From: Deltaproteobacteria bacterium
GTDB taxonomy: Bacteria; Desulfobacterota; Deferrimicrobia; Deferrimicrobiales; Deferrimicrobiaceae
Reading direction: 5' to 3'
NCBI GenBank assembly: GCA_016219515.1
Contig: JACRMU010000007.1
Coordinates: forward strand, 40 to 64,039
Length of the DNA: 64,000 bases
Both the position numbers and the translations under genes were made by a program. The first letter of the stretch is position 1. Every line of letters begins with the position of its first letter. Below are positions 13,191 to 43,109 of the stretch, one piece after another. The notes under the pieces are model-generated. The model searched no databases. It saw only the letters and a list, made by a program, of their open reading frames with translations, and was not told the DNA's origin.

Positions 13191-14735
13191 ATGTCCATGC
13201 GCACTTTTCGACGCATTTCCCAGTGGGCGGTATTCCTGGTCTTCGTGTTCCTTTTCCTGAACACGGAATACAAGGACAACGACGTTCTCCCGTATGCGGT
13301 CAACGTATTCCTGCGGCTGGACCCCCTCGTTGCGGCGGCTGCGGCGATTTCCGGGAGGGCCCTCATAAGTCTCGTGTGGCCCGCGCTGGTCGTCGCGGGG
13401 CTCACGATCCTCCTGGGCCGCTTCTTCTGCGGATGGGCATGCCCGATGGGTTCCCTGCTGGACGCCGTCGATGCGACTCTCTTCGCGCGCTGGAGGCGAA
13501 AGTTCGCGGTTCCCCCTTCCTGGCGGCGATGGAAATATCTGATCCTCGTTTTTCTCGCGGGATCGGCGCTGTTCACGCTCCAGTGGGTTTTCCTCTTCGA
13601 TCCGATCAGCATCCTCATCCGCTCGTTCGCGGTTTCCCTGTTCCCGGTCCTGAACCGGATCGTGCACGACACGTTCGGGGCCCTCTATGGGACCCATGCC
13701 GGCCCGGTGACCCGTCTCTCCGAGCCGGCATACGATTTTCTCCGGGCCCACTTCCTCGCCTTCGAGCAGCCGATGTTCCGGGCATCGGCTCCGGTCGGAC
13801 TTCTCTTTCTCGCGATCCTGGCGGCCGAGTACTATCAGAAACGGTTCTGGTGCAGGAACCTCTGTCCCCTGGGGGCGTTCCTGGCGCTTCTCGGAAGGTT
13901 CGGCCTTTTCCGGAGACGGGTGATGGAGGATGGCTGCACACGGTGCGACCTGTGCGAGAAGAGCTGCCGGATGGGGGCCATCCGCGATGACGTCGAGACG
14001 TTCCACGGCGAATGCGTCGGATGCATGGATTGCCAGGCAATCTGCCCGGAAGAGGTCATCCGGTTCTCCGGCAAGGAGGGGCGGCGGGAGGCCGCCGTGG
14101 ACCTTTCCCGCAGGGGCGTCCTCGCGTCGGCGGCCCTCGGCGTGGCGACCGTGCCGTTCTTCCGCGTGGAGGCGCATCGGAAAGCCGCCGATCCGGGCGT
14201 GATCCGGCCCCCGGGCGCGCTGGCCGAGGACGAGTTCCTCTCCCGCTGCACGCGGTGCGGCGAGTGCATGAGGGTGTGCATCGCGAACGGGCTCCAGCCC
14301 ACGTGGTTCGAGGCGGGGCTGGAGGGGATGTGGAGCCCCGTCCTGGTTCCACGGATCGGGTATTGCGAATACAACTGCACGCTCTGCGGGCAGGTGTGCC
14401 CCACCGGCGCGATCCGCCGGCTCCCCCTCCCGGAAAAGAAAAAGGTGAAGATCGGCCTTGCGGAGATCGACCGGAGCCGCTGCCTGCCGTGGAAGGGGCA
14501 GTCCGACTGCATCGTCTGCGAAGAGCACTGCCCGACGGCGAACAAGGCCATCCTCATGAAGGAGGAAAAGGGGATGACGATCGCCGGCGAGGCGAGGGTC
14601 TTCAAAAGACCCTACGTCGACGAGGAGCTGTGCATCGGGTGCGGGATCTGCGAGACGAAGTGCCCGTTGACCGACCGTGGCGCCGTCTACGTGACCTCCC
14701 GGGGCGAGTCGAGGGCGGTAGCCAGGGTATCGTGA
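13191..14735 (+). CDS. NapH/MauN-family membrane-bound polyferredoxin (4Fe-4S)
   Basis: N-terminal TM helices with FFCGWACPMGSL and CRNLCPLGAF motifs, followed by about six CxxCxxCxxxCP ferredoxin motifs. Confidence 0.8.
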   Translation: MSMRTFRRISQWAVFLVFVFLFLNTEYKDNDVLPYAVNVFLRLDPLVAAAAAISGRALISLVWPALVVAGLTILLGRFFCGWACPMGSLLDAVDATLFARWRRKFAVPPSWRRWKYLILVFLAGSALFTLQWVFLFDPISILIRSFAVSLFPVLNRIVHDTFGALYGTHAGPVTRLSEPAYDFLRAHFLAFEQPMFRASAPVGLLFLAILAAEYYQKRFWCRNLCPLGAFLALLGRFGLFRRRVMEDGCTRCDLCEKSCRMGAIRDDVETFHGECVGCMDCQAICPEEVIRFSGKEGRREAAVDLSRRGVLASAALGVATVPFFRVEAHRKAADPGVIRPPGALAEDEFLSRCTRCGECMRVCIANGLQPTWFEAGLEGMWSPVLVPRIGYCEYNCTLCGQVCPTGAIRRLPLPEKKKVKIGLAEIDRSRCLPWKGQSDCIVCEEHCPTANKAILMKEEKGMTIAGEARVFKRPYVDEELCIGCGICETKCPLTDRGAVYVTSRGESRAVARVS

Positions 14736-14831
14736 ACGTGCACAAGATCCTGTTGCAACCAACGCGGATCGTTCCGGCGGATTTTCCGTGAGGATCGCCC
14801 GCACCATTATTCTTTCCGGACGGGAGGAAAA

Positions 14832-15797
14832 GTGACAAGGGCCAGGTGTCTTTGGAGCCGGAGGAAGTTCCTGCGGCTGATGGGAGGGGCGGCGGGAATG
14901 CTGGCCGCCGGGGGCGCCGGATTGACCGAGGGAGGCCACGCCGTGCCGGAAGCCGCCGCCGCGCCGGGAGCCGGCGTGAAGGTGGCGGTGGCGTCGGGAG
15001 CGGCCCCTTCGGAAAACGTCGCCAGGGCGGTGGCGGCGCTCGGCGGCATCAAGGCGTTCGTCTCCCGCGGAGACGTGGTCGTCCTCAAGCCGAACATCGG
15101 GTGGGACAGGACGCCGGAACAGGCGGCAAACACGAACCCGGAGGTGGTCGTCGCCCTGGCGGAGATGTGCCTCTCCGCGGGGGCGAAGGAAGTGCGCGTG
15201 TTCGACCGCACCTGCAACGACCCCAGGCGCTGCTATGTGAACAGCGGCATCCAGGCCGCCGTGGAGGCGTTCGCGAAAAAACGCGGCGCGTCCGGCGTGG
15301 TGCGGGTCTACCACGTCGAGGACCGGAAGTTCCGGAGGACCGCGATCCCGGGCGCGTTCGCCTTGAAGGAGTGGGACCTCTACAGGGATGCGCTGGAAGC
15401 GGACAAGATCGTCAACGTCCCCGTGGCCAAGCACCATACGCTGGCCACCGCGACCCTCGGCTTGAAGAACATGATGGGAATCATGGGCGGGAACCGGGGA
15501 CAGATCCACTACAACCTCTCGGATTGCCTCGTGGACATCCACCGCCGCCTGCCCACGAGCCTGACGGTCATCGACGCAACGCGCGTGCTGCTCCGCAACG
15601 GCCCGTCGGGGGGGAACCTCGCCGACGTCCGCGCGCTGGGCAAGGTGTTCGCCTCCCCGGACGTCGTGGCGGCCGACGTCGTCGCGGCGGAAAGGGTCTT
15701 CGGATGGAAGCCGAGCGACGTGGCGCACATCCGGAAGGCGCTCGACGCGAAACTCGGCGTCTCTTCTCCCGCGCAGATCCGCGTGGTCGAGGCGTGA
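14832..15797 (+). CDS. Tat-signal DUF362-domain protein
   Basis: Twin-arginine motif SRRKFLRLMGGAAGMLAAGGAG. Contains the ...VVLKPNIGW... core typical of DUF362. Confidence 0.55.
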   Translation: MTRARCLWSRRKFLRLMGGAAGMLAAGGAGLTEGGHAVPEAAAAPGAGVKVAVASGAAPSENVARAVAALGGIKAFVSRGDVVVLKPNIGWDRTPEQAANTNPEVVVALAEMCLSAGAKEVRVFDRTCNDPRRCYVNSGIQAAVEAFAKKRGASGVVRVYHVEDRKFRRTAIPGAFALKEWDLYRDALEADKIVNVPVAKHHTLATATLGLKNMMGIMGGNRGQIHYNLSDCLVDIHRRLPTSLTVIDATRVLLRNGPSGGNLADVRALGKVFASPDVVAADVVAAERVFGWKPSDVAHIRKALDAKLGVSSPAQIRVVEA

Positions 15798-15833: not shown

Positions 15834-16184
15834 ATGATCCCTAAGCGAAACCCGGAAATCGTATGGCGGCTGGAAAAGGGGATTCACGAGATGGCGTGGG
15901 ATAAGGCGCGCAAGGATGAGGACTTCGAGGATATGGGCGTCCTCACGCTCATGATCAAGGGGGCGATCCACCAGTTGAACCTGGTCGGCGCGGAAATCTG
16001 GATGCGGATCAACGGCGTCAACTCGCTGAAAAAAATCTCCGGGGACATCGCCTCCCTGTTCGGCTGGGAGAAGGAGGAGACGGAGGAAGCCGTCCTGGGG
16101 TTCCTGAAGGGGATCGAGGAGCGCGGCTGGGTGACCCTCTCCGGGAAGGGCGGCCCGGCCCCGCCGAAGTGGAAGGCGCATTGA
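15834..16184 (+). CDS. PqqD-family peptide chaperone (RiPP recognition element-like)
   Basis: ...IHQLNLVGAEIWMRINGVNSLKKISGDIASLFGWEKEETEEAVLGFLKGIEERGWV... matches the PqqD consensus (hxLNxtaaxIWxxidGxxsxxeI...dvxxFlxxLxexGlv). Confidence 0.65.
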   Translation: MIPKRNPEIVWRLEKGIHEMAWDKARKDEDFEDMGVLTLMIKGAIHQLNLVGAEIWMRINGVNSLKKISGDIASLFGWEKEETEEAVLGFLKGIEERGWVTLSGKGGPAPPKWKAH

Positions 16185-16296
16185 TGCGTTCACGTCTCTC
16201 CTCTCCGGAACTCCCGCGGGAAAAATCGGGGGCACGTCCTTCCGTCCGTGTTTTCCGGTTACAATAAAAGAACTTCACGTCAAGCAAGGAGAGCGC

Positions 16297-17208
16297 GTGG
16301 AATATTCCCTGCCGATACGCGTGCGATGGGACGTCGACTTCCAGGGGCGGTCCGGCCGCGCGAAGCGGATCGCCCGCCAGATCCGGGAGGCGTCCCCGTT
16401 GCATGTCGAGCTCCGGATCGAGGGAGGAAAGGGGATTTCCGAGCTTCCTGCGATCTTTGCCGAAATCCACAAGTGCAGCCCGCGGATCGAGACCACTGTG
16501 CCCCTCTCCCCGGCAGCCGTCGCGGTTGCGCGGAGGGGATATCCCCAAATGGATTTCCTCTGGGAGGTGAGCGCCCGCGAGCCGTTCCGAAGGCTCCTCC
16601 CCTCGGGGGCGGATGCGATCTCCTTCGTTCCCGACGAGGAGAACCTGGCGTACCTTCCCGACGTTTTGGAGGAGTTCGCGGACAGCGAAACACGGACGCT
16701 GCACCTGCCGAACGTCAACGCCGTCCGCGCGCTTGCATTGAAGGGGCACGTCCCCATCCCCATGCCCGACCGGCTCCGCGAGGCGGGGCACAGGATATCG
16801 GCGCTTCGGATCCGCCTGGAGGGCAAGAAGCTGGTCGCGCACGATTATTTCCTCTGGAGGATCCTGCGGGGCGCGTTCCCGGACGAAGTGGCGGGAAGGG
16901 TCGAGTTTTCCGGATGCCAGGCGGCCTCCGCGCTTGCGCATGTCGACTGGGAAGGGAACGTCTACCCCTGCGATTCCCTCCCCATCCGCCTGGGGAACCT
17001 CCAGGAGGCGACGTTCGAAAAGATCTGGAACGCCCCGGCGAGATCGCGGATCCACGAGGCGATCCGCTCCGTGCCGACCTCCTGCAAGCCGTGCGAACAG
17101 AGGGAGGGTTGCCTTTCCGGTTGCCGGGGGCATGCGTACGCCGCCTCCGGCACGATGGACGCTCCCGACCCCTCCTGCCCGGAGAAGCCCGTCCCCGCGT
17201 CGAAGTAA
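16297..17208 (+). CDS. SPASM-domain protein lacking the canonical radical-SAM CX3CX2C motif (pseudo-rSAM-like maturase or partner)
   Basis: C-terminal ...SGCQAASALAHVDWEGNVYPCDSLPIRLGNLQEATFEKIWNAPARSRIHEAIRSVPTSCKPCEQREGCLSGCRGHAY... is a textbook SPASM/twitch region. The N-terminal 200 aa has a single Cys and no CxxxCxxC. Confidence 0.6.
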   Translation: MEYSLPIRVRWDVDFQGRSGRAKRIARQIREASPLHVELRIEGGKGISELPAIFAEIHKCSPRIETTVPLSPAAVAVARRGYPQMDFLWEVSAREPFRRLLPSGADAISFVPDEENLAYLPDVLEEFADSETRTLHLPNVNAVRALALKGHVPIPMPDRLREAGHRISALRIRLEGKKLVAHDYFLWRILRGAFPDEVAGRVEFSGCQAASALAHVDWEGNVYPCDSLPIRLGNLQEATFEKIWNAPARSRIHEAIRSVPTSCKPCEQREGCLSGCRGHAYAASGTMDAPDPSCPEKPVPASK

Positions 17209-17248: not shown

Positions 17249-17821
17249 ATGGCCTTCGACGACGATTCCAGGCTCGCCCGCAGGGCCCAGAAGGGGGATC
17301 GCCAGGCGTTCGAGGCGCTCCTCGATAGGTACGAGCGTCCCATCTATTCCTTCATCTACCATTTTTTCCAGGACCGCGCGCTCTGCGAGGACCTGACGCA
17401 GGAGACCTTCCTCCGCGCGTACCGGTTCATCGGGTCGTTCCGTCCCGGTGAGAAGATGTCCACCTGGCTTTACTCGATTGCCAAGAACCTCTGCATCGAC
17501 GAACTGCGGCGCAGGAAGAAGGGTACGGCCGTGGACATCGACGCGGTCGATCCCGATCTCCTCGTCGCGGAGGGGAGGGACGGCGGCAATCCCCTGGTTG
17601 CCGCCATCGATCAAGAGCAGGGAGAGATCCTCCGCAAGCTCCTCCTTCGGGTCCCGGAGAAGTACCGTATGAGCATCATCCTGTTTTATTTCAATGAGCT
17701 GAGCTACGAAGAGATTTCCGCGATCATGGAAATATCCTTAAGCAACACGAAGATACTCCTGTTCCGCGGGAAAAGGATGCTGGTGGAACTGTATCGGAAG
17801 GAAACCGGCGGGAAAGTGTAA
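17249..17821 (+). CDS. RNA polymerase sigma-70 factor, ECF subfamily
   Basis: Region 2 (...ALLDRYERPIYSFIYHFFQDRALCEDLTQETFLRAYR...) and region 4 (...ELSYEEISAIMEISLSNTKILLFRGKRML...). Confidence 0.85.
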   Translation: MAFDDDSRLARRAQKGDRQAFEALLDRYERPIYSFIYHFFQDRALCEDLTQETFLRAYRFIGSFRPGEKMSTWLYSIAKNLCIDELRRRKKGTAVDIDAVDPDLLVAEGRDGGNPLVAAIDQEQGEILRKLLLRVPEKYRMSIILFYFNELSYEEISAIMEISLSNTKILLFRGKRMLVELYRKETGGKV

Positions 17822-17879: not shown

Positions 17880-18653
17880 GTGAACGGTTGCCGTAAATAC
17901 GAGGATCTTCTTGCCAGGTACATCCACGGCCAGGTTCTCCTCCAGGAGGTAGAGGACCTGGAAGGACACCTGGCCATGTGCGCGGCCTGCGAGAAGCTTT
18001 ACCGGGAAATCGCGGACATCGATCGAGTCCTGCGTGAGATGCCGGATAAGTCCGTCGAACCTCCGGCCCATCTCCGATCGAAAATCGTTGCGAACCTGCA
18101 GGAGGAGGAAAGAACCCCGGCCTGGCGGCCCTGGGGGAAATGGGCGGCTGCGATCGGGGCGGCCGCCGCGTGCCTCCTTGCGGGCGTCGTGCTTTACCGG
18201 GGAGCCGTGACGAAGGAATCCCGCGTGGCGCCCCTTCCTTCCGCGGCGCCTCCCGCCGCGCAGTCGCCGCAGGAAACCGCTCCCGGGGCTTCGGCGAAAG
18301 CCCCCGCTGCGCGGCCCCCGTTGTCTTCCGCCACGGCGCCGGCTCCTTCTCCCCACGCCGTGGAACTCCGGATCGTTCGCGAGGTAAAGATCTATTTCTA
18401 CCATCCGGCCGCGTCGAAGGTCGCCGTGACCGGCGATTTCAACGGCTGGAATCCCGAAGGCGTTCTCCTCACGGCATCCGGGGAGCCGGGGGTATGGAAG
18501 ACGACCTTGCGGCTCCATCCGGGGGCCTATTCCTACATCTTCATCGTGGACGGAAACCTCCTCGTTCCCGACCCCAATGCCCCCGACCAGATGCCGGACG
18601 GATACGGGGGGACGAATTCCATCCTGCTGGTCAAGGGAGGAAACTCCGTGTGA
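17880..18653 (+). CDS. Anti-sigma factor (zf-HC2) with a C-terminal CBM48/AMPK-beta-like glycogen-binding-type domain
   Basis: N-terminal HLAMCAACEKLYREI zinc-finger anti-sigma motif. One TM helix. C-terminal VKIYFYHPAASKVAVTGDFNGWNPEGVLLTASGEPGVWKTTLRLHPGAYSYIFIVDG is E-set/CBM48-like. Confidence 0.7.
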   Translation: MNGCRKYEDLLARYIHGQVLLQEVEDLEGHLAMCAACEKLYREIADIDRVLREMPDKSVEPPAHLRSKIVANLQEEERTPAWRPWGKWAAAIGAAAACLLAGVVLYRGAVTKESRVAPLPSAAPPAAQSPQETAPGASAKAPAARPPLSSATAPAPSPHAVELRIVREVKIYFYHPAASKVAVTGDFNGWNPEGVLLTASGEPGVWKTTLRLHPGAYSYIFIVDGNLLVPDPNAPDQMPDGYGGTNSILLVKGGNSV

Positions 18654-19249
18654 GGTTCCGGGCGGTCTTCGCATCGGCGCTCGCGGCGGCGCTTTGTTTC
18701 CTTCCGCTCCCGGCGTTCGCGCAGCACGCGGCCATCGAGGATCTCTGCCGGCTCCACGGGATCGAGCGGCAGGAGAACATCGTTCGGATCGGCGAGGCGT
18801 ACGCGGCGGCCCGCAAGGCCGGCATCGGCGAGGAGGAGCTCCTTCCTTTCCTCGAGGAGATCCTGAAGCACAAGCTGGACTGCCCGCAGATGGTGCGGGT
18901 CCTCGCCGCCGCCACGAAGCTGCGGGAGGAGGGGCTTCCCTATTTCGTCGTGTTCAGCAAGGTGAGGGAGGGAGTCGCCAAGGAGGCGGCGCCGGCGCTG
19001 GTGGTCGAAGCGGCGGAATCGAAACTTAAGACTTTATCCGAATCGCGCGATGTCTTAAAATCCCTCGAGGCAAACGGGTACAGGATTCTCGATTTTCAGA
19101 ATGCGGCAGTCATCGTTTCTTCCTATATAGAGAAAGGATATACATCGGGCGAAATCGTTTCACAAATCCGGAAGAAGGGGATCCAGGGAGCGGGATTTGC
19201 CGCGCTGTCCGGGGTGGTGGAGAGAAAAGTGAAGCGGAAAGAACGCTGA
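18650..19249 (+). CDS. Secreted hypothetical protein
   Basis: GTG overlaps the anti-sigma stop (GTGTGA). Signal peptide VRFRAVFASALAAALCFLPLPAFAQ. No recognisable domain. Confidence 0.45.
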   Translation: MRFRAVFASALAAALCFLPLPAFAQHAAIEDLCRLHGIERQENIVRIGEAYAAARKAGIGEEELLPFLEEILKHKLDCPQMVRVLAAATKLREEGLPYFVVFSKVREGVAKEAAPALVVEAAESKLKTLSESRDVLKSLEANGYRILDFQNAAVIVSSYIEKGYTSGEIVSQIRKKGIQGAGFAALSGVVERKVKRKER

Positions 19250-19251
19250 CC

Positions 19252-22200
19252 TTGCGCAGATTCGCCATCTGGGCGGTGTTCCTGGCCGTCGCCGGGGGGT
19301 GGCTCCTGTTTTCCTCCAGCGGACAGGCCGGGATCGGGGTCGTCGGAAGTCCCCACGATTTTTCCACCACGACGCCGGGGCCCTGGACCCGGGACAATTC
19401 CGCATACACCTCGGGGGGGATCGCCCCCTCGGGCGTCTGTTCCGCCTGCCATGTGCCGCATTCCGCGAAATACGCCCCCCTGTGGCCGAGGGACCTTTCC
19501 ACCTACGACAACGCGCTCCTGCTGGATGGAAGCGGCGGGGCGACCGGGAAGCCGAATTACCGGAGGCCGATGACCAATCAGTGCTTCGACTGCCATGACT
19601 ACCACCAGACGACCACGGAACGGATCGACGACCTGCCGAACTTCTCGAAGTTCTCCAGCGTGAGCTCCGGCCACAAGCCGCAGAACATCGCGTTCGGTTA
19701 CACCACACCCACGACCGGAAAGGACCTGAACTCCACGATGAAGGAGGACATCCCGGCGGGATCGGTGTCCGGGTATTATGAAAACACCCCGCCCTACCAG
19801 ACCCAGCCCACGAGAAATTACGGCGCGACCGACAACGTCCGCCGACCCCTCGACAACACCACCTTGAGCCGGACCGGAGGCCATTACTTCAAGTCGGGGG
19901 ACCCCAACGCGAGCGGCGGGATCTATAAGGGGGACAAGCTGCCGTGCAGCGACTGCCACGAGCCGCACATGTGGGACGGCAACGGCGCCTGGCAGGCGTT
20001 CATCCGGAGGAGCTGGCCCTCCGGGAGCACGGTCGCCACCCGCCTTCAATCCTGGACGGGGCGGGCGAGCACCTACATGGCGAACGCGCCGACCCCGACC
20101 GGCGCGACCCGCAGCGACCTCGACAGCAGAACGATCTGCGAAGCGTGCCACGGGTCGGCGGACAGCGGCAATCCGCCGGTCACCTACCCCCAGATCAACG
20201 ACTCCACGTCCCCGAACCCGTATACGAACAATCAGCAGATCGTCGCCGCGCCGTCGACGGTTTCGGAACACTTCAACTCGAGGTCGCAGGCGGCCTGCGT
20301 TTCCTGCCACAACCACAACAACATCGGCGCGAGCTGCTCCCAGTGCCACGGCTTTCCGCCGAGTTCCACCGCTACCATCAAGTACCCGACGAACTTCACG
20401 CGCGTGCCCAATCCGGACAACGACGCGGACACCTCGACGCGGGACTCCCACGCCATGCATTACGGGGCGAAATCGGGGGAGACCCGGAATGCCGCCGCCG
20501 GGTATGTCTATGCCTTCGATTGCAGCACCTGCCATTACGGCTCGGCGCTCGGGACCGATTCGGCCATGGGGCACCATCAGGACAACCTGGTCTCGGTTGT
20601 CATCCAGGGGATCTATACGAAAGCGCCGAACGGCCCGGCCGGAGCGTACGACAACACGAACTATTACAACCAGGGCCCGGGGTTCCCGTTCCCGCCTACT
20701 CGGACGGGCCTGCTGGACAATACGAACGTTTCGCCCAACGGATGGGGGGCCGGGTCCCGCTACGGCGGCAACACCTGCCGCAATGTCTACTGCCACAGCG
20801 CGGGTCGGGCGCTCGCATCGATGACGCTGAACAACGACAACGACTTCCGGTCCCCCGTGTGGGACAACGGCCCCAGGCGCTGCAACGACTGCCACGGAAA
20901 AGGGACGGACAACACCGCCGTCAACTGGGGAATGCCCAGCTATGCGAACGGGGGAGCCGGACTCGACAACGCGAACTCCCATTCCGAACACGTGGTCGAC
21001 AACAGGATCGAGTGCTCCGTGTGCCATGCGGGGACGGTCACGGGCACGGGGGCGAGCCGCGCCATCGTGAGCACGGTGCCGACCCTGCACGTGAACCGGG
21101 TGCGCAACGTGCAGTTCGGCGGGGGGGCGACGGGCACCTACGACAACGCGACGAAACGGTGCAGCGTCGCCAGCTGCCACGGAGCCGGCAATCCCCAATG
21201 GGGCGGCACACTGGTCGGCTGCAGGGCGTGCCATTTGTCGAACAGCCCGGACACCGATTTCTACCTGAGCGGGACCGACAACCTCTATTCCGGCTCGGCG
21301 GTGACCAACATCGACAACACGGAATGGACATGGTCGGGGCATGGCCGGCCCACCGCGTCGGGGGCCTACGAGAAGAGCGGCTACCCCGCCGCGAACTTCG
21401 ACGGGGCCGCCGGCTCCGGCGACTCCTGCTACTATTGCCATAATTACTATGTGGCGCACGACAACTCCGTGAATCCGTTCCGGCTCAAGGACCAGACGGG
21501 GGCCGCCTCCTACCTGGCGACGCTGGGCTGGAACGCGACCTGCATGGTCTGCCATTTCCACTCGTCGACGCCGACGGCGAACCAGCCCCCGGGGTACCGG
21601 CCCGACAACACGTACACGCTGGTGAGGGCCGCATCCTCCTTCGTGGACAACGCGCATTACGGCACGAAGCATACTTCGACCAACGGCGGGAAGTTCTGCT
21701 GGGACTGCCACGATCCCCACGGCGACCGGACCCAGACCAACGGGAACAACATCTTCATGATCCACGGCGGTTCCGCGTCCCGCGGCGGGACCGCGGTCGG
21801 CTCGCTCCTGCGCCAGAGCGACAATGTTTTCGGCATCCGGGGATCCGCGGGCCAGCTCACGACCAACTACCCGGTCTTCACCGACAACGCTTCCGGCGGC
21901 AATTACGTCGACAACAACACGCCGAAACGGGGGGTCTGCCAGGTCTGCCACACGCAGCCGACGACCGGACACTACCGGTCGGACTATTACGACGGCCACA
22001 ATCTAACGGCGCGCTGCACCTCGTGCCATCCCCACAACGCGGGGTTCGCTCCCAGCGGGGGGAGAAACATCGAGCAGTTCATGGACAACGTGACGGGCAG
22101 CCCGTCGACGAACTACGAGGACCGCTCGCGGCACCCGCTGACCCTTTCGGGAAAGACGTACCCCGCGGAGGTGAACTGCCTGGGCTGCCACGGGGTCTCC

Positions 22201-28680: not shown

Positions 28681-28681
28681 G

Positions 28682-35938: not shown

Positions 35939-37719
35939 TGCGCGGATCCGGATATATCTTATGGATGGTTGCGGCCGCGGTCCTTATGCTGCTGGAAGGC
36001 TCCGCGCGGGGGGCGGGATTGATCAGCGGGAGCTACGAGTTGACCGTCGATGAAACCGTCGACAAGACGGCGAGCGGAACGACCCGGGCCGTCCGGTCGA
36101 AAAACACGCTGGACCTGCGGTACAAGGGATTTCTCGCCCCCGTCATACAGAACGAGCTGACCTTCAAGGTGGAGCAGTTCCGCGATTCGACGGGACCCGA
36201 CACGGTGAAGATCTTCCCGGGGATCTCCCTGGGCTACAAGGGATCGTACTGGAACGCCGGCGCGAAAAGGACGATCGAGGATTCGAACGAGGTCGGGAAG
36301 ACCGCTTCCATCACCGACAGCTACTTCATGGAGGTGTTCCTCGTGCCGCCGAGGAGACTTCCGGACTTCAAGGGGAAGTACACGCTGGAGACGAACTTCC
36401 AGGAGGGATCCACCGATACGCGGAAGACCTCCTGGAACCTGTCGTCCAACTACCGTCCATACGATTGGCTCGACGTGAAGGGGGATTACTCCCGGAACCT
36501 GAACGACGACCGGCTGAAGGCCGACTCGGACACGGAAGAGGAAAGAATCAGCGGAACGGGAGGCATTCGACACTTCATCTCCAACAAGATCAAACTTGAT
36601 ATACAGTACAAGGTGGAAAAGAATACCGGGGCGACTCTCCTGGATGCGGGAGGAGCGAAAAACCAGAAAGAGGAAGAGACGCAGACGGTAAAGAACCTGA
36701 TTGCCTTCCGCCCCTTCAGGGACACGAACGTCGACGCATCCTTCGACGGCGAGCTGAAGGAGAACCACGTGAGCGGGGAGCATAACCTGACCGGCAACTT
36801 CAAGGTTTCCGCCGGGCAGAAGATCGGACAACCGTACGACCTCAAGGCGGATTTCGGGCGGAACATCACGGAAGCGCGTCATACCGCGGACGACAACAAG
36901 AAAACGGAAGACACGGTAACGGTGGATTGGAAGGCGAAATATTCGAGCTTGCTCGATTTTTCCGTGAAATACCTCAAGAAGGACATCGAAGAGGACCATC
37001 CGTTCGACCTGACGAAGAACACGTCGTCCGGGAACGAGGAGTGGACCGCTTCCTGGGTGTCCCAGATCCTGCCCACGTTGAACGCGTCGTTTTCCTACGA
37101 CAAGAACGATACCTTTTCCCGGGGGGCCAAGTCCGCCGTCGACACCCGGTACAACCTGAAAGCCAACGTCGCCCTGAGGGACATCAACCTGACGCTCGAT
37201 CCTTCCTACGAAATCGCATTCAAAAACGACCTGGTGACGATGGTGAAGAGCGAAACGCGGGACTTCCGCGTCGCGCTGACCTACAAGCCGATCGAAACGA
37301 ACAACATCAACTCCCTCCTGTCCCATACGTACGCCCGCAAGGAGGATTCCCTGGCGAACAACATCAACCGGACGGACAGCACGTCGGGAAACGTCACGTG
37401 GAAGGACCCCCTTCCCGGATGGATGATGGGATTCGACATCACCCGGCAGGCGACCGACACGAGCAACGACGATCTCCCGCCGGACATCACCACCAATTTC
37501 GGCGTGAAGGCCTCCTACAAGTACCGGCGGCTGGCGTTCGACACGTCCTACAAGTACGACAAGAAGAAGATCTCCGACGACAGCGAAAGCTTCGACGTGA
37601 AGGTGGGCTGGACGGCGCCCTCCTGGGACGCCAGTCTCACCTACGCCTTCAAGAGGACGTTCTCCGTGGCTCCGAACGAGGGACAAAGCATCGGTTTCGC
37701 TTTCCGATACGTTTTTTAA
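35938..37719 (+). CDS. Putative outer-membrane beta-barrel protein
   Basis: Signal peptide and alternating amphipathic beta-strand pattern throughout. Terminal ...FAFRYVF with C-terminal Phe. ATG overlaps the upstream stop. Confidence 0.55.
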   Translation: MRGSGYILWMVAAAVLMLLEGSARGAGLISGSYELTVDETVDKTASGTTRAVRSKNTLDLRYKGFLAPVIQNELTFKVEQFRDSTGPDTVKIFPGISLGYKGSYWNAGAKRTIEDSNEVGKTASITDSYFMEVFLVPPRRLPDFKGKYTLETNFQEGSTDTRKTSWNLSSNYRPYDWLDVKGDYSRNLNDDRLKADSDTEEERISGTGGIRHFISNKIKLDIQYKVEKNTGATLLDAGGAKNQKEEETQTVKNLIAFRPFRDTNVDASFDGELKENHVSGEHNLTGNFKVSAGQKIGQPYDLKADFGRNITEARHTADDNKKTEDTVTVDWKAKYSSLLDFSVKYLKKDIEEDHPFDLTKNTSSGNEEWTASWVSQILPTLNASFSYDKNDTFSRGAKSAVDTRYNLKANVALRDINLTLDPSYEIAFKNDLVTMVKSETRDFRVALTYKPIETNNINSLLSHTYARKEDSLANNINRTDSTSGNVTWKDPLPGWMMGFDITRQATDTSNDDLPPDITTNFGVKASYKYRRLAFDTSYKYDKKKISDDSESFDVKVGWTAPSWDASLTYAFKRTFSVAPNEGQSIGFAFRYVF

Positions 37720-37745: not shown

Positions 37746-38813
37746 ATGAAAAACTGGAAGAGGATGGCGTGGCTGATCGTGGTGACGGCTCTCGTGGCGG
37801 GCTGCTCGCGGCCGGTGATCCGTGAGCACGCTCAACCCTCCAAGGCCAAGGATACCTACCTTCGCATCAAGCGGGTCGCGATCTTCCCACTGGAAAACTA
37901 TTCGGAGACCCGGGACGCGGAGAAGATGGTGGACGCCCTCCTGGTGCCTGCGCTCCGGCTGGAGAAGGTCTTCAACGAAGTGGAGGATACGCGGTTCACC
38001 CGCGACGTGATGAAGAAGCTGAAGATCACCGGGACGGACATCCTGGAAAAGGAGGTCGTCCGGAAGCTGGGCGACGAAATGAACGTCCAGGCGATCGTTT
38101 ACGGGAAGATCCTCGGCTACGGAAAGGGGAAGGAGAAGGATGCGTCCTCCCAGGTGACGATGGATATGGCCATGGTCGAGCCCTCCACGGGGAGCGTTCT
38201 CTGGGTGGGGAACGTGTCGGCGATCGGCGGGCTGACCGCCGGGAAGATCTTCGGCGTCACGGAAGGGAAGACCGACGTGGAAGTGGCCAGGGATGCGGTT
38301 CGCGCCCTGGCCTCCCGGCTTGCCGACGAAATCCGCCGGGCGCGGGAACAGGAACGGAAGGGGATCGTCGCGGAGCTGAAGAAGGAAGAGGAGATCGAAA
38401 AGGCGAGGCTGGACAAGCTGAAGGGGGAGACCGGGAAGATCCAGGAGCAGCTGGACAAGGCGAAGGCGGAGGCCGGCGCGATCAGGGACGCCGCCTCGAA
38501 AGAGGCCCAGGCGGTCAAATCGGACCTGGAAATGCAGAAGGCGGCGCTGGACGCGGAGAAGGCGAGGACGACGTCCGCGCAGCAGGATATCGAAAAAGAG
38601 AAGATGAAGGTGGAGATGGAAAAGAGAAAGATCGAGGAGGATGCGAAGAGGATCGGGGAGGAAAAGAAACGGCTGGAAGAGCTGAAGAAGAAATCCGAGG
38701 GTGCGATCAAGGAGGAGCCGGTCAAGGAGGGCGCTTCCCCGGCCGCGCCGGCCCCTGCGCCGGCCGCGCCCGCTCCGCCTCCCGCCGCGCCCGCGGGAAC
38801 ACCGGCGCAATAG
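37746..38813 (+). CDS. Lipoprotein with an N-terminal CsgG/LpoB-like globular domain, a K/E-rich coiled coil and an A/P-rich C-terminus
   Basis: Lipobox LVAGCS. ...RVAIFPLENYSETRDAEKMVDALLVPAL... Long EEIEKARLDKLKGETGKIQEQLDKAKAEAG... coiled coil. C-terminal PAAPAPAPAAPAPPPAAPAG. Confidence 0.55.
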   Translation: MKNWKRMAWLIVVTALVAGCSRPVIREHAQPSKAKDTYLRIKRVAIFPLENYSETRDAEKMVDALLVPALRLEKVFNEVEDTRFTRDVMKKLKITGTDILEKEVVRKLGDEMNVQAIVYGKILGYGKGKEKDASSQVTMDMAMVEPSTGSVLWVGNVSAIGGLTAGKIFGVTEGKTDVEVARDAVRALASRLADEIRRAREQERKGIVAELKKEEEIEKARLDKLKGETGKIQEQLDKAKAEAGAIRDAASKEAQAVKSDLEMQKAALDAEKARTTSAQQDIEKEKMKVEMEKRKIEEDAKRIGEEKKRLEELKKKSEGAIKEEPVKEGASPAAPAPAPAAPAPPPAAPAGTPAQ

Positions 38814-38921: not shown

Positions 38922-40004
38922 TTGAGGAACGCATGGTTCAGGAGGATCGGATCGGTATTGGCGGCCGCTGCGGCATGCGGCCTGTGGATGGGATGTTCCA
39001 CCGCGGACGGGAAAAACGAGATCGTGGGGACCGCCAACGGCGAGGAGATCCGGGTGGCCGAGCTCCGCGAGTTTCTGGGAGTCCGCAGCGGTTCGACGGC
39101 AGCGTCGGATATCCCGGCGGAAAAGAAAAAGGAGGCGCTGGACCGGTTGATCGGCGGCCGTCTCCTTGCGCAGGAAGCGCGGGCGAAGGGCCTGGACAAC
39201 ACCGAGGAATTCCGCGCGCAGATCCGGCAGAACGAGCAGGACCTGTGGATCACCGCGCTCTTCCGGAAGGAGATCGACGCCAAGTCCTCGGACATCGACA
39301 AGGAGGTCAAGGCGGAAGCGAAAAAAATGATGGAAGCGGACAAGAAGCTCACCGAGAAGGACGCGGAATCGCGCGCCGGGAAGCTGACGTACGATATGAA
39401 GGTACGGAAGATCCAGGAGGAATTGATCGCCTCCGCGAAAAAGGAGGTCCCGCCTTCCATCGACAAGGCGCTGCTGGAACGGATCGGGAAGAAGGAGAAC
39501 GTCGCCGACGACGCGGTCATCGCGACGGCCGGCGCGGAGAAGGTCAGCTACGGCGAAGCGAAGCGGATGCTCCAGGCCATCGGCGGGGGCTCGCACGGCT
39601 CCGAGGACCTGTCGCGGAACCCGACGGCGATCGAAAGGATCCTGGACCGGGAGCTCACGAAACGGGCCCTTCTCGGCCTGGCGAGGAAACAGGGGATCGA
39701 AGGGTCGAAATGGCTGGCGGAAATACGGAAGGAGATGGAGAGGATCCTCCTCATCAACATCCTGGCGGAGAAGGAGATTCTCAAGGGCATCGTCGTGACC
39801 GACAAGGACCTCGATGCGACCTACAAGGAACATGCGGACATGTTCGTCCAGAACGGGAAAAAGATTCCGTTCGCGCAGGTCAAGGAGCAGATCCGGGGAT
39901 TCGTCGCGACCAACATGAAGAGAAAAGCCATCGAGTCGTATGTCGAGGCGCTGAAAAAGAAGGCCAAGATTACGGTGAACGAAAGCGTTCTCGCCAAGGT
40001 GTAA
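38922..40004 (+). CDS. SurA N-terminal-domain-like periplasmic chaperone lipoprotein
   Basis: Lipobox LWMGCS. IVGTANGEEIRVAELREFL resembles the SurA_N/PpiD N-terminus. No clear PPIase domain seen. Confidence 0.5.
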   Translation: MRNAWFRRIGSVLAAAAACGLWMGCSTADGKNEIVGTANGEEIRVAELREFLGVRSGSTAASDIPAEKKKEALDRLIGGRLLAQEARAKGLDNTEEFRAQIRQNEQDLWITALFRKEIDAKSSDIDKEVKAEAKKMMEADKKLTEKDAESRAGKLTYDMKVRKIQEELIASAKKEVPPSIDKALLERIGKKENVADDAVIATAGAEKVSYGEAKRMLQAIGGGSHGSEDLSRNPTAIERILDRELTKRALLGLARKQGIEGSKWLAEIRKEMERILLINILAEKEILKGIVVTDKDLDATYKEHADMFVQNGKKIPFAQVKEQIRGFVATNMKRKAIESYVEALKKKAKITVNESVLAKV

Positions 40005-40016: not shown

Positions 40017-40967
40017 ATGTCCATGAGGAAGCGGGCGCTGCAGGCGGCGGTGTTGGTGCTGGCCCTTTGGGCCGCGGGGCGGGCGGCCGCGGAGACAACC
40101 TTCGAGCTTCTCTATTCCGTCGGGGGTTTCGGCATCGGGAGGCAGAGCTTCGACCGGCCCGTCGACGTCGTCGAGGACCGGGAAGAAAACGTATACGTCG
40201 TGGACCAGGGGAACAACCGGATCCAGGTGCTCGACCGGAGGGGGACGTTCCTCAGGGAATGGGGAGGACGCGGGTTCACCCCGGGCCTTTTCGACAAGCC
40301 GTCGGCGATCGCGATCGAACCGGTCGCGGGAAGCCTTTTCGTGGTGGACCGGCTCAACCATCGCGTCCAGAAGTTCGATCCGAACGGAAGGTTCCTGATG
40401 TCGTTCGGACGGCTCGGCTCCGGGGACGGGGATTTCAACCGGCCGATGGACATCGCGCTGGACAGGAAAGGGAACATCTTCGTCGCGGACACGGGCAACA
40501 ACCGGATCGAGAAATTCGACCCGAGCGGAAAATTCATCCTGGAATGGGGAAAGTACGCGCGCCGTCGCCGGGGGGCCGAACTGACGAACCCGGTCTCCAT
40601 CGCCTATTCCGATGAAGGGTTCGGCTATATTTACGTGCTGACGTCGCCCGAATGCGTCGTGCAGAAATACGACATCGACGGGGTGCTCGTGAAAACCTGG
40701 CCGATGCGCCCGAAGGGGGAAAGCGCGCTCTGCGGTCCTTCCCGCATACGGATTGAACCGCGGAAGTATACGGTGTATATTGCGGATACGGAAAACAACC
40801 GCTTGATTCTGTTCGACAAAGAGGGCGAACCCCTGGGGGAATTGCGGGGGGGGAAGGTCCCGCTGAAGAAGCCCGGCGGCCTGTTCGTGAACATTTCGTT
40901 CGGGGAGAATGTCGTCGTGGCGGACACCGGCAACCATCTCATTCAAAAGTTCAGGAGGGAAAGGTAG
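40017..40967 (+). CDS. NHL-repeat beta-propeller protein
   Basis: Signal peptide. Repeated ...VYVVDQGNNRIQVLD..., ...LFVVDRLNHRVQKFD..., ...IFVADTGNNRIEKFD..., ...VVVADTGNHLIQKF... Confidence 0.8.
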   Translation: MSMRKRALQAAVLVLALWAAGRAAAETTFELLYSVGGFGIGRQSFDRPVDVVEDREENVYVVDQGNNRIQVLDRRGTFLREWGGRGFTPGLFDKPSAIAIEPVAGSLFVVDRLNHRVQKFDPNGRFLMSFGRLGSGDGDFNRPMDIALDRKGNIFVADTGNNRIEKFDPSGKFILEWGKYARRRRGAELTNPVSIAYSDEGFGYIYVLTSPECVVQKYDIDGVLVKTWPMRPKGESALCGPSRIRIEPRKYTVYIADTENNRLILFDKEGEPLGELRGGKVPLKKPGGLFVNISFGENVVVADTGNHLIQKFRRER

Positions 40968-40969
40968 TC

Positions 40970-41557
40970 ATGCGCGTTCCTGCGACGACTCCGCTTCTTT
41001 CCGTGATGTTTTTCTGCTGCATGGCGTTCGTGGCGGGAACGGCGCTGGCCGAGGAAAAGGCGATGACTCCCCTTGCGGGGGGGATCCCCATGATCGAGGG
41101 GATCAAGATGCTGGAGGTGGGGACCGCCGCGCCCGATTTCAGCGTCAAGGACTCCGATGGGAAGCCGTTCCGCCTCTCGGAGGAGAAGGGGAAGAAGGCG
41201 TTCCTCCTCGTGTTCTGGTCGATCTTCTGCGAACCGTGCCGGGCCGAAATGCCGGTCATCCAGAAGATGCACGAGAAGTACCGGGAAAGCGGTCTGAACG
41301 TCGTCACGATCGCCCTCGACGGCGAGCCGCTGGTCGGCAGCATCGCCGGGTTCATCCGCCAGGAGGGGTACACCTTCCGGGTGTTGATCGACGAGCTGGA
41401 TTCCCAGGAGATGTTCAAAGTGGCCGATCCCTACGGCGTGGCGGGGACCCCGACCCTCTTTCTCCTGGACCGCGCGGGGAAGGTGGCCCTCGCCAGGGCG
41501 GGCCGGCTGACGGATGAGGAGCTGGAAAAGGCCATCCAGGCGGTTCTGAAAAAGTGA
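40970..41557 (+). CDS. TlpA-family thiol:disulfide oxidoreductase
   Basis: Signal peptide. FWSIFCEPCRAEMP. Confidence 0.8.
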   Translation: MRVPATTPLLSVMFFCCMAFVAGTALAEEKAMTPLAGGIPMIEGIKMLEVGTAAPDFSVKDSDGKPFRLSEEKGKKAFLLVFWSIFCEPCRAEMPVIQKMHEKYRESGLNVVTIALDGEPLVGSIAGFIRQEGYTFRVLIDELDSQEMFKVADPYGVAGTPTLFLLDRAGKVALARAGRLTDEELEKAIQAVLKK

Positions 41558-41561
41558 GCGG

Positions 41562-43109
41562 GTGATGTGGGCGGCCCTCCGCGGTGCGACCCTCGCCGCG
41601 CTGTTCTGCCTTTGGGCCGGGAGCGCTTTAGCCGTCGCCGTGGGGGAGCCGGCGGCGCCCATCGAGGGGGAGGACCTGAACGGGGAGCGGGTCGTCCTGG
41701 AGTCCTTCCTCGGAAAGAAGGCCGTCCTCCTGAAGTTCGGGTCGATCTACTGTTCGACCTGCGTGTCTTCCCTGGAGGATATCGCCCGCATCCAGCGGAA
41801 GTTCAACCCCTCGGAACTGCAGGTCATCGGCGTGAACCTGGACGTCTACGGCATGGCGCGCGTGCGGAAGTTCTACCGGGGCTACGCGACCCTCATCGAC
41901 TATCCGATGATCATCGACGAGAAGCTGGCGGCCTCCCGTCCATACGATATCCGGTCGATCCCCGCGCACGTCGTCATCGACAAGGGCGGGTTCGTCCGGT
42001 ACCTGTCGACGGGCGCTTCGGAGCAGGACCTGAAGAACCTGGAAGAGGTCGTCACCAAGGTGGTCCGCGGCGAGAGCGGCGTCGAGAAGCTGGCCAAGGA
42101 ACTCCCGCTGCAGGTTTTCCTGCCGCTGAATTTCACCAAGACCTACCAGGAGTCGATCTATGTCGTGGGAAAGACGAAGCCCGGGAGCAAGGTGTCTCTC
42201 GTCCTCAACGGCGGATCGCGGCAGAACTTGAAGACCATGCGGGATTATTTCTACATCCGCACTCCGCTTTCCCTGGGCTCGAACTACATCGAGCTTCAGG
42301 TCGTCGACGAGCAGGGCAGGAGGGTCAACCAGGGAGTGGTCCTGTTCCGGGCTCCGAAGGTCGGGGTGGGGATCGAGTCCCCCTTCCCGGAGTATCATTT
42401 CCACATGGAAAAAAACGAGGGGCCGTGCAGGAAGTGCCACGACCTCAATCCCCCCGCGGAGAAGGCGCAGGGATTCTCCGCGGCAACCCGGTTCTGCCTC
42501 GGATGCCACAAGGAGCTGACCGGCCAGCGGATGGCGCACGGCCCGATTCCCATCGGGGGGTGCGCGCCCTGTCACCGGTTCACGAGCAAGCCGAACCGGT
42601 ACCAGGTCGTCGCCCGGGGGCAGGAGCTCTGCTTCAAGTGCCACGAGGAGAAGCGGAAGGACCTCGTAAAGACCTATCTCCACGGCCCGATGTCGGCCGG
42701 GCTCTGCACGATCTGCCACAATCCGCACGGCTCCTCCGAGACGTACCAGCTTCGGAGATACGTGGGGGACCTCTGCGTCATGTGCCACGAGGGGATGAAG
42801 GCCGTGCAGCGGAAGCGGGTGGTCCACAAGCCGGTGGCCGACGGCGCATGCGCGAAGTGCCACGAGTCGCACTCCTCGGACCGGAACGACAACTTTCTCA
42901 AGATCCCGGGGGACGGCCTGTGCCTGTCCTGCCACACCGATTTCGGAAAGAGGGGGCATACCCACCCGAACGGCGTTCCCCCGAAGATGGACCGGAAGAT
43001 GAAATTGAGCAAGGAAGGCAATCTGGTCTGCCAGTCGTGCCATGAGGCCCATGCGTCCGACGAACCGAAGCTACTGGTGAAAGGAGGGTGCGGCGGATGT
43101 CATTCCTGA
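41562..43109 (+). CDS. Fusion protein: N-terminal TlpA-like thioredoxin domain plus C-terminal decaheme cytochrome c (paired-CxxCH / c3-c7 type)
   Basis: Signal peptide. Trx-like FGSIYCSTCVSSLEDI. The C-terminal half has CRKCH, CLGCH, CAPCH, CFKCH, CTICH, CVMCH, CAKCH, CLSCH, CQSCH and CGGCH, with conserved distal His spacing (...HGP...). Confidence 0.8.
   Translation: MMWAALRGATLAALFCLWAGSALAVAVGEPAAPIEGEDLNGERVVLESFLGKKAVLLKFGSIYCSTCVSSLEDIARIQRKFNPSELQVIGVNLDVYGMARVRKFYRGYATLIDYPMIIDEKLAASRPYDIRSIPAHVVIDKGGFVRYLSTGASEQDLKNLEEVVTKVVRGESGVEKLAKELPLQVFLPLNFTKTYQESIYVVGKTKPGSKVSLVLNGGSRQNLKTMRDYFYIRTPLSLGSNYIELQVVDEQGRRVNQGVVLFRAPKVGVGIESPFPEYHFHMEKNEGPCRKCHDLNPPAEKAQGFSAATRFCLGCHKELTGQRMAHGPIPIGGCAPCHRFTSKPNRYQVVARGQELCFKCHEEKRKDLVKTYLHGPMSAGLCTICHNPHGSSETYQLRRYVGDLCVMCHEGMKAVQRKRVVHKPVADGACAKCHESHSSDRNDNFLKIPGDGLCLSCHTDFGKRGHTHPNGVPPKMDRKMKLSKEGNLVCQSCHEAHASDEPKLLVKGGCGGCHS

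Follow-up and report, generated by a model that had tools for sequence, protein, structure and literature searches.

A conserved barrel and thioredoxin-decaheme module with accessory giant cytochromes in an uncultured Deltaproteobacteria bacterium

Does a run of neighbouring redox genes form one machine, or several joined end to end? The question is raised by positions 13191–43109 of the 64-kb window analysed here, i.e. the whole stretch of 64,000 nucleotides from contig JACRMU010000007.1 of an uncultured Deltaproteobacteria bacterium. Porin-cytochrome conduits are a known route of electrons across the outer membrane, and this block carries two giant multiheme cytochromes, an outer-membrane beta-barrel and a fusion of a TlpA-type thioredoxin with a decaheme cytochrome. 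A preliminary description had read it as an island housing one complete electron-transfer module, built around the two cytochromes and served by the downstream genes as helpers. Comparison with related loci gives a different answer. As judged from gene order, four modules have been pieced together here as a mosaic: a NapH/NapG fusion with a DUF362 protein (module A), a PqqD/SPASM cassette with sigma and anti-sigma factors (module B), the giant cytochromes with a propeller (module C) and a run of genes from an M6 metalloprotease to a GAF-GGDEF protein (module D). By the same token module D is the conserved unit, the giant cytochromes being accessory, fast-changing additions.

Coordinates throughout are positions in the window, and all genes described in the block lie on the forward strand, with gene models supported by codon-position GC (GC3). 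Domains were called by Pfam and NCBIfam scans of the translations, sequence matches to structures by phmmer against all PDB chains, and synteny by comparison of the window with about 30 related contigs (L001–L029).

Conserved and accessory parts of the block

Module D is syntenic in all related loci as far as their contigs reach (L003, L005, L007–L013 and L018–L029), at 36–98% identity. The order is M6 protease, barrel, LpoB-like lipoprotein, SurA_N lipoprotein, NHL propeller, TlpA, TlpA::decaheme fusion and GAF-GGDEF protein, followed by engB and NfnAB-like genes. Two more distant loci (L014 and L015, 40–45% identity) keep a full-length barrel homolog together with the NHL, TlpA, fusion and GAF-GGDEF genes, and contain no M6 protease. 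What precedes the M6 gene varies among the 12 loci informative on this point, the window included. Giant cytochromes stand there in three (the window, L007 and L019, the latter two with flanks ca. 95–97% identical to the window), an Ig protein only in two and unrelated genes in six, while in the remaining locus (L003) the genes for PqqD, radical SAM (rSAM), SPASM and extracytoplasmic function (ECF) sigma proteins abut the M6 gene directly, with neither anti-sigma factor nor cytochromes.

Modules B and C, for their part, are collinear in L016 (93–95% nucleotide identity) and L017 (55% amino acid identity). The string reads PqqD, rSAM, SPASM, ECF sigma, anti-sigma, a 199-aa protein, cytochrome, a small gene and second cytochrome, with the L016 contig ending inside the propeller gene, and PhnD-like, Sulf_transp and ArsP_1 genes stand before it in both loci. 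Since module B adjoins module C, and also module D, in more than one lineage, a functional link between sigma factor, cytochromes and core can be argued. The proposal of one complete module centred on two giant cytochromes is not supported by this comparison: the cytochromes accompany the M6 gene in a quarter of the informative loci, and the window strain has lost its rSAM gene and carries the larger cytochrome gene with a broken frame. The supposed helpers downstream prove to be a conserved unit with an MtrA-like decaheme of its own.

In other respects the preliminary description was accurate. Its contiguous, same-strand, often overlapping genes are borne out by GC3-supported open reading frames (ORFs) that run unbroken on the forward strand from 13191 to 44872 and beyond, with overlaps of start and stop verified at 18650 (GTGA), at 23073 (ATGA) and at the junction at 35938. 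Nearly all the domains that it named (NapH-like, DUF362, PqqD, SPASM, ECF/anti-sigma, propellers, M6, NHL, TlpA and TlpA-decaheme) were recovered by Pfam or NCBIfam. Its end point at 43109 has to be moved, as the same-strand run carries on through the GAF-GGDEF gene and then EngB and NfnAB-like genes, after which the single strong terminator-like site (47978–48005) ends it; none was found in 13191–47938. Scans of the block for sigma-70 promoters performed no better than on shuffled sequence. Wrong-frame ORFs contain zero heme motifs, and the heme-motif counts given below are therefore far beyond chance.

A mobile genomic island was also considered and ruled out, because composition matches that of the flanks (GC 0.58–0.67 in the block versus 0.60–0.68), mobility genes are absent, a tRNA search of the window found none and the downstream EngB/NfnAB-like flank is kept in relatives. 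The word island is accordingly dropped. An Rfam scan gave no match, and thus no riboswitch of the c-di-GMP or cGAMP type, the kind controlling Geobacter cytochromes.

Genes of the conserved module

The module opens with an M6 metalloprotease (32363..35938) that bears Reg_prop repeats, an HEMGH motif and a match to TIGR03296 of 142 bits, above the cutoff. Its residues 1081–1149 score 85.1 bits against a cutoff of 40 with the CFI-box-CTERM model NF041770, which places it in that family. The C-terminal region (35081–35938) consists of the CFI-box domain, GGCFLSTAAYGS...RRFRD, and then a transmembrane helix, an arrangement kept in the orthologs, in which HEXXH and the motif C-F-[LIV]-x-T-A-A-Y-G-S are likewise conserved. 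A distant match to InhA was also returned, and a literature search for the CFI-box yielded nothing relevant. In L009 an extra lipoprotein with NHL-like repeats (4801–5964 of that contig) lies directly upstream of the M6 gene. In L013 (CAVYRM010000004.1, 2200–15100) many frame breaks interrupt the genes of the M6 protease, the barrel, the SurA_N lipoprotein and the GGDEF protein, more probably through errors of long-read assembly than as true pseudogenes.

The protease gene is followed by that of the outer-membrane beta-barrel (35938..37719), which ends in FAFRYVF, contains no Cys and is predicted to have 30 strands and no plug. The AlphaFold model, of high confidence (pLDDT 86.5), shows this 30-strand, plug-less form. 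A family assignment was not obtained: Pfam gave only a weak, sub-threshold Porin_4 match, the MtrB/PioB models (PF11854 / TIGR03509) gave none, and a Pfam scan of the most remote family members revealed no MtrB_PioB link. The family is rare, with 65 representatives among 1.84 billion proteins, mostly of 580–630 aa.

Two lipoproteins come next, as had been described. One (37746..38813) carries an LVAGC lipobox, a weak LpoB-like domain, a long coiled coil and a Pro/Ala tail, and has orthologs in all close relatives. The other (38922..40004) has a SurA-like N-terminal chaperone domain, recognised through sub-threshold SurA_N_2 and SurA_N_3 matches beside a weak EpsD-type match; no peptidyl-prolyl isomerase (PPIase) domain was detected in it. 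A secreted six-bladed NHL propeller (40017..40967; PF01436, 91.5 bits) matches NHL structures in the PDB, and its Cys213 and Cys239 are conserved in five of six orthologs. An exact-sequence look-up with this protein, and with P0191, returned no contig.

The two thioredoxin genes anticipated by the preliminary description were confirmed. The first encodes a TlpA/ResA-type thioredoxin (40970..41557) with a CEPC motif, the CXXC being kept in 6/6 orthologs. The second (41562..43109) is the TlpA::decaheme fusion, in which a Sec signal peptide precedes a TlpA/ResA-like thioredoxin domain (CSTC), a beta-sandwich and an MtrA/DmsE-like region of five doubled-CXXCH units, i.e. 10 hemes. The PDB sequence that it matches best is the MtrA chain of the Mtr complex (6r2q_A, E 2.8e-11, query residues 311–502). 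The best whole-cytochrome match in NCBIfam is DmsE (TIGR03508), at 111.6 bits below the cutoff of 192.2. On these similarities the decaheme region is judged homologous to MtrA/DmsE, within a distinct fusion architecture. Across 112 homologs of the fusion (36–96% identity) the CXXC, the ten CXXCH and the distal histidines are conserved at ca. 100%, and AlphaFold2 modelling with Foldseek finds the thioredoxin domain to be ResA/DsbE-like (TM score 0.87–0.94).

Last comes an inner-membrane GAF-GGDEF protein (43088..44872; alternative start ATG 43142), composed of a periplasmic domain between two transmembrane helices, a GAF domain and a degenerate GGDEF domain, present at 58 bits, whose signature reads CFGAAF instead of GGDEF. 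The signature is lost in all six aligned orthologs (window, L003, L005, L008, L014 and L015), which show CFGAAF, CYGATF, CFGSTF or YGGRLL, and for this reason the protein is probably a receptor or scaffold and not a cyclase. Its gene adjoins that of the fusion in every examined relative with a long enough contig, the distant L014 and L015 among them. The labels of barrel and fusion homologs at NCBI include Candidatus Methanoperedens, Candidatus Methylomirabilis, Actinobacteria and Syntrophaceae, which probably reflect mis-binned contigs of the same uncultured lineage.

Genes upstream of the conserved module

Within module C, the first large cytochrome (19252..23076) is a protein of 1274 aa with 24 heme motifs (21 CXXCH and 3 CX3-4CH) and with GSu_C4xC__C2xCH and Cytochrome_C7 domains, in line with the count given in the preliminary description. 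It is 100% identical to MBI5341859.1, from an uncultured 'Deltaproteobacteria bacterium' metagenome-assembled genome (MAG). All 51 of its homologs are metagenome-derived, one of them, at 40% identity, being labelled Candidatus Deferrimicrobiaceae. A relationship of the host lineage to MBNT15/Deferrimicrobiota is suggested. The MBNT15 phylum is reported to have many multiheme cytochromes, with up to 43 hemes, in clusters that differ from those of the window (PMC9386147).

The next gene, the start of which overlaps the stop of the 24-heme gene, encodes, as had been noted, a secreted Reg_prop beta-propeller (23073..24002). In L016 its ortholog begins and the contig ends within the gene, and in L017 the position is taken by a 245-aa gene for which no Pfam family was recorded and which was not detected as a propeller homolog.

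The giant cytochrome itself, described earlier as a protein of about 45 hemes with an Ig-like tail, is found in the window in two reading frames. The N-terminal part (24046..28685) holds 32 heme motifs, its ORF then running out of frame to a stop at 28986, and the C-terminal part (28686..32159) holds 13 motifs and a Big_1/Invasin_D3 tail from about 30511. The frame breaks at 28680..28685 because 124 nt kept by L007 (83–207) and L019 (2600–2729) are missing; they amount to 41 codons and include a CDECH heme site. L019, an independent JGI contig ca. 95% identical to the window and collinear with it, has an intact single ORF of at least 2065 aa through the Ig tail. Completed with the upstream part, the intact cytochrome would reach ca. 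2750 aa and ca. 46 heme motifs, Ig tail included, and to this extent the earlier description holds. The window copy is thus either inactivated or mis-assembled.

A further rearrangement is seen in L007, the flanks of which are 97% identical to the window. In addition to the 124 nt it has an extra 2.7 kb (window 30510–30522 versus L007 1867–4555), so that its cytochrome continues for ca. 560 further residues with more heme sites, ca. 52 motifs in all, before a stop. The Ig protein is there a separate secreted gene product of 822 aa, and identity to the window, 97% in the flanks, falls to 82–87% across the indel region. L010 and L013 likewise have a stand-alone Ig protein, with ...PRRR at its end, encoded before the M6 gene. 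Because the Ig protein is a gene of its own in these three loci, the cytochrome-Ig fusion of the window and L019 is probably the derived state. Taken together, 124-nt and 2.7-kb indels, a gene fusion and a lost frame, all within flanks ca. 95–97% identical, mark the giant cytochromes as accessory. They are predicted to be secreted, belong to the Geobacter CxxxxCH/CxxCH type and have one heme for every ca. 50 residues. Neither the 24-heme cytochrome nor the N-terminal part of the giant one has any PDB match at E<=0.01, and Mtrc-MtrF_II-IV domain matches on the giant cytochrome are generic heme-packing matches.

Module B begins with a PqqD-family peptide chaperone (15834..16184; PF05402), GeoRSP-like with 46.3 bits against a cutoff of 100 for TIGR04302 and with orthologs in L003, L016 and L017. 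Next to it lies a deletion scar (16209..16216), where ca. 1 kb with an rSAM/SPASM gene is gone: L016 5979–6975 has no window counterpart, the rSAM/SPASM gene sits between the PqqD and SPASM genes in L003, L016 and L017, and tblastn of the window with the L003 rSAM protein gave a SPASM cross-match only. The deletion is clean, leaving PqqD and a SPASM-only protein, and the resulting order is the same in two independent Sequence Read Archive (SRA) assemblies. That SPASM-domain protein, a 'pseudo-rSAM' (16297..17208; PF13186), aligns end to end with the GeoRSP_SPASM model TIGR04304 (98.6 bits, cutoff 300) and has no CX3CX2C radical-SAM motif. An ECF sigma factor (17249..17821; Sigma70_r2 and r4_2) follows the SPASM gene in the window, L001, L003/L004, L016 and L017. 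An anti-sigma factor (17880..18653) combines zf-HC2, one transmembrane helix and an extracytoplasmic CBM48/AMPK1_CBM-like domain, with orthologs in L016 and L017 and none in L003. Overlapping its stop is the start of a secreted helical protein of 199 aa (18650..19249), which has no Pfam or NCBIfam match and orthologs of 97% identity in L016 and 73% in L017. All four components that the preliminary description had placed here (PqqD, SPASM, sigma, anti-sigma) are therefore present, the SPASM protein being one without the rSAM motif, whereas the window lacks the catalytic rSAM gene.

GeoRSP is defined by TIGR04302, TIGR04303 and TIGR04304 each scoring above cutoff; both window proteins score below theirs (46 versus 100 and 98.6 versus 300) and the catalytic gene is deleted. 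In likeness to GeoRSP, a PqqD protein stands with a full-length SPASM protein lacking the rSAM motif, and relatives of the window add the rSAM/SPASM enzyme in the same order. By these scores the window genes constitute a cassette related to GeoRSP and not a member of it. A literature search for GeoRSP found no reported function or substrate. In L016 (1–5600) and L017 (1–5450) the cassette comes after a conserved string of genes for NosD/beta-helix proteins, a PhnD-like binding protein, a small ORF, Sulf_transp and an ArsP_1 permease.

Module A starts with a 514-aa protein (13191..14735) in which a NapH-like membrane domain (two Fer4_5, two CX3CP motifs) is fused to a NapG-like polyferredoxin with Fer4 dicluster domains. 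The junction, at residues ca. 305–325, contains a Tat-like stretch, LSRRGVLASAALGV / LSRRGVLASAALGVATVP, of which LSRRGVLASAALGVATVP looks like an old NapG signal peptide reused as a transmembrane helix; on that reading the NapG-like clusters would lie on the periplasmic side. Likeness to the NapGH quinol dehydrogenase is limited to the domain level, since both family models score below cutoff (TIGR02163 for NapH, 76.7 versus 213; TIGR00397 for NapG, 89.2 versus 178.9) and no napA was found among the window ORFs scanned for domains. The DUF362 protein (14832..15797; PF04015, 161.7 bits) has a twin-arginine motif, SRRKFL, which requires the GTG start at 14832, and has no sequence relative in the PDB. 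The order DUF362, PqqD, SPASM, ECF recurs in L001 and L002, two 100%-identical SRA contigs. L016, the nearest relative, aligns with the window only from ca. 15794 onward and has ArsP_1 and Sulf_transp transporter genes in place of the NapH/G and DUF362 pair. This end of homology argues that the pair is a strain-specific replacement and not a conserved entry, contrary to the quinol or ferredoxin entry point proposed for it. Module A may rather be a separate, strain-specific quinol-linked redox pair, lying upstream by happenstance.

Further upstream, a 7-heme cytochrome gene (336–1472) is followed by two TlpA-like redoxin genes (1426–2049 and 2046–2552), and a further pair of TlpA-like genes is found on the minus strand immediately before the block (11775–13027). 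The 7-heme and TlpA genes look like a 'split' counterpart of the TlpA::decaheme fusion. Between the first of these genes (336–2552) and the block is a polysaccharide-modification cluster (5706–11732), comprising a deacetylase/DUF3473, a methyltransferase, three GT4 and one GT2 glycosyltransferases.

Proposed mechanism and rival explanations

The reading that we put forward, at a probability of roughly 45%, is that the locus is a mosaic in which module D would be a new envelope redox machine and the giant cytochromes would be sigma-controlled heme wires in this lineage. Starting from gene content, synteny, the conserved redox motifs, the 30-strand model and the sequence similarity to MtrA, we infer the cellular location of the components, a barrel-cytochrome complex, a direction of electron flow, a sigma regulon and a protease substrate. 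The plug-less 30-strand barrel would house or dock the MtrA-like decaheme, a pairing proposed on the grounds of co-conservation, size and sequence similarity to MtrA. The N-terminal end of the decaheme, which carries the TlpA/ResA-type thioredoxin, would be periplasmic. In the Mtr complex (6R2Q) the N-terminus of MtrA faces the periplasm, and by analogy the thioredoxin of the fusion should sit at the periplasmic end of the heme rod. Its partners would be the second TlpA, the NHL propeller, two lipoproteins acting as chaperones or scaffolds, an M6 protease at the cell surface and a GAF-GGDEF protein devoid of catalytic activity. Electrons would then move between the heme chain and a CXXC/TlpA/NHL relay, which would couple thiol/disulfide chemistry in the periplasm to the network of cytochromes and perhaps to the outside of the cell. 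We hold this to be the likeliest design, with no more than moderate confidence. The module C cytochromes (24 hemes, and ca. 46 with the Ig tail) would most likely serve as long heme wires for extracellular electron exchange under ECF sigma/anti-sigma control, and the adjacent M6 protease may cut the Ig-tailed cytochrome, as OzpA does OmcZ, though in relatives without a giant cytochrome it clearly has other roles. Taken in its most specific form (a heme wire through the barrel that exchanges electrons with a periplasmic thioredoxin relay, coupling the redox state of the surroundings to thiol chemistry or signalling, into which some strains plug wires of 24 to more than 50 hemes under an ECF sigma factor), the proposal is speculative and rather improbable.

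Several points weigh against this reading. The organism is uncultured and the locus is known from sequence alone. Four genes separate the barrel gene from the decaheme gene, the heme part of the AlphaFold2 fusion model is of low confidence, and the Foldseek result is dominated by the thioredoxin domain. Direct electron transfer from heme to dithiol without flavin or quinone would be unusual. Near module D, a large cytochrome is missing from most of the loci that carry it, and hence its ancestral role need not be extracellular electron transfer. With its rSAM gene deleted and its large cytochrome frame-broken, the window strain may have an apparatus in partial decay, or the assembly may be wrong at that point.

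This last point can be carried further, to the view that modules B and C are a decaying, nonfunctional remnant in the window strain, whatever their role in relatives. The clean 1-kb rSAM deletion, with the resulting gene order in two independent SRA assemblies, fits such decay, as do the 124-nt deletion not shared by L007 and L019 and the lowered identity and large indels between flanks ca. 95–97% identical. The 124-nt gap, however, falls within a repetitive, GC-rich tract and may be an artefact of assembly, GC3 is high in both parts of the giant cytochrome, and the 24-heme gene, the propeller, the sigma/anti-sigma pair and a 1,650-aa N-terminal product are intact; decay is thus a serious possibility that we nonetheless consider doubtful. 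Unlikely, too, is an account in which module D would serve periplasmic thiol redox, protein maturation or repair with no electron transfer across the outer membrane. Here the decaheme would feed the TlpA relay in place of CcdA/DsbD, with apocytochromes, the NHL Cys pair and the CFI-box protease as clients, the barrel as a porin or export pore, and the giant cytochromes as neighbours or perhaps also clients. It draws on the reductive ResA/TlpA/DsbE class of the thioredoxin domains, on the six TlpA-type domains that the window has in its first 43 kb, a few of them next to a further multiheme cytochrome, on the conserved NHL Cys pair and the SurA-like and LpoB-like lipoproteins, on the lack of a CcdA/DsbD gene in the block among the genes scanned, and on the missing giant cytochrome near most carriers. 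It leaves unexplained the MtrA/DmsE-like nature of the heme domain and an unusual 30-strand, plug-less barrel of a rare family (65 representatives) that is always co-encoded.

The persistence of the GAF-GGDEF gene after the fusion gene, in every examined relative reaching that far, would also suit a redox sensor, in which the heme and thiol proteins report the redox state of the periplasm or the cell's surroundings to this membrane-bound protein, which would control surface or biofilm behaviour; a periplasmic domain between two transmembrane helices and a GGDEF signature degenerate throughout are what a receptor or scaffold would have. Ten hemes, a 30-strand barrel, a protease and two lipoproteins are a heavy outfit for sensing alone, and with no evident output domain or target this seems most improbable. 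Scarcely better placed is the original conception of 13191–43109 as one complete electron-export system, with NapH/DUF362 as entry, the 24-heme protein as relay, the 45-heme protein and barrel as conduit and the rest as helpers. One strand, short or overlapping junctions, no strong terminator before 47978, the presence of every listed domain and a layout resembling PCC3 (PMC5566968) all speak for it, yet the transporter genes replacing module A in the nearest relative, the 3/12 tally, the helpers' status as a unit with their own MtrA-like decaheme, and the deleted rSAM gene and broken giant cytochrome frame of the window strain make it very unlikely.

What remains after this weighing is the mosaic with module D as its core. 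A small, tightly conserved and unannotated module is brought to light, built around the thioredoxin-decaheme fusion and the 30-strand barrel. If heme-to-thiol transfer proves true, it would be a new way to power or sense periplasmic thiol redox without CcdA/DsbD, and would provide a concrete target for work on how MBNT15-like bacteria of groundwater and sediments cycle iron.

Comparison with known systems

The preliminary description had found no counterpart among Mtr, Omc and Cyc2-type systems, and this is sustained: the barrel misses the MtrB/PioB models, the giant cytochromes have no PDB relatives, and the decaheme is a sub-threshold DmsE/MtrA-like protein. The neighbourhood and profile comparison that it had proposed thus returned no characterised family of these kinds, while dividing the block into modules. 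By the defining models the locus appears to be no member of the Mtr, Omc-filament, Cyc2, NapGH or GeoRSP families. Nor is it a categorically new, self-contained system. MtrCAB, MtoAB and PioAB resemble it in co-encoding a large plug-less outer-membrane barrel with a decaheme of MtrA/DmsE similarity. MtrB forms a barrel of 26 strands. The window barrel, in contrast, has 30 predicted strands and no MtrB/PioB match, the decaheme bears a TlpA thioredoxin at its N-terminus and also a beta-sandwich, the barrel and decaheme genes lie apart, and there is no MtrC/OmcA homolog (TIGR03507 reaches 28.7 bits versus 209.3, and on the TlpA::decaheme only). Unlike Cyc2, the barrel has no fused N-terminal monoheme and neither Cys nor CXXCH. 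As for the solved filament cytochromes OmcS, OmcZ and OmcE, the 24-heme protein and the N-terminal part of the giant one gave no PDB match that would indicate a relationship.

A parallel to OmcZ lies in gene arrangement. In Geobacter sulfurreducens OzpA removes the Ig part of OmcZ (PMC9473688), and in the window likewise a multiheme cytochrome with C-terminal Ig-like domains adjoins a secreted protease gene. The window protease is of the M6 type and not a subtilisin, is also kept in relatives without the cytochrome, and stands beside ca. 46 hemes as against 8, in a protein with no PDB cytochrome match. SOQ1 and NHLRC2 (PMC6107167) similarly pair a TlpA-like thioredoxin with an NHL propeller, and both gave weak PDB sequence matches; in the window each of the two has its own gene, the genes being neighbours in a bacterial envelope operon with a decaheme. 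A survey of Desulfuromonadia cytochromes makes no mention of thioredoxin or NHL, and a preprint on extracellular electron transfer in peat concerns phyla other than that of the window.

Besides the SOQ1/NHLRC2 pairing, the closest likenesses are those to PCC3 and Uet, and they are likenesses of architecture and component types. PCC3 clusters, which are defined bioinformatically, combine a porin with periplasmic and extracellular cytochromes of median 21 and 34 hemes (PMC5566968), with ranges of ca. 21–27 and 10–63, respectively (PMC5566968; PMC10734462). As in those of Fe(II)-oxidisers, two huge repetitive cytochromes (24 and ca. 46 hemes in the window), proposed as long heme wires, lie on the same strand within a few kb of a porin gene. 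PCC3 also has a conserved inner-membrane protein of ca. 300 aa with five transmembrane helices and two WX3HX13H motifs, of dihaem-b type (PMC5566968). No such protein was found among the GC3-supported genes of 13191–44872, the NapH/G fusion being the sole polytopic membrane redox protein there. Further differences from PCC3 are that the window barrel belongs to a separate module, usually without giant cytochromes, and that the window cytochromes are of the Geobacter CxxxxCH/CxxCH type. The Uet cluster of Ca. Tenderia electrophaga and Gallionella comprises a barrel, a PPIase, NHL proteins and an undecaheme (bioRxiv 10.1101/2022.05.06.490989; PMC10734462). By component types it shares with module D a barrel, a PPIase/SurA-type chaperone, NHL propeller(s) and a doubled-CXXCH cytochrome of ca. 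10–11 hemes in one conserved operon. The window block differs in having no triheme c7 proteins (UetD/E/G), cupredoxin, tetraheme UetA or adjacent CcsAB, and in possessing two TlpA domains, an M6 protease and a degenerate GGDEF protein. Divergent porin-cytochrome clusters are regularly reported from MAGs, and the locus is best read as a new variant among such electron-transfer clusters, the most original element of which is the module of barrel, TlpA::decaheme and NHL propeller rather than the giant cytochromes.

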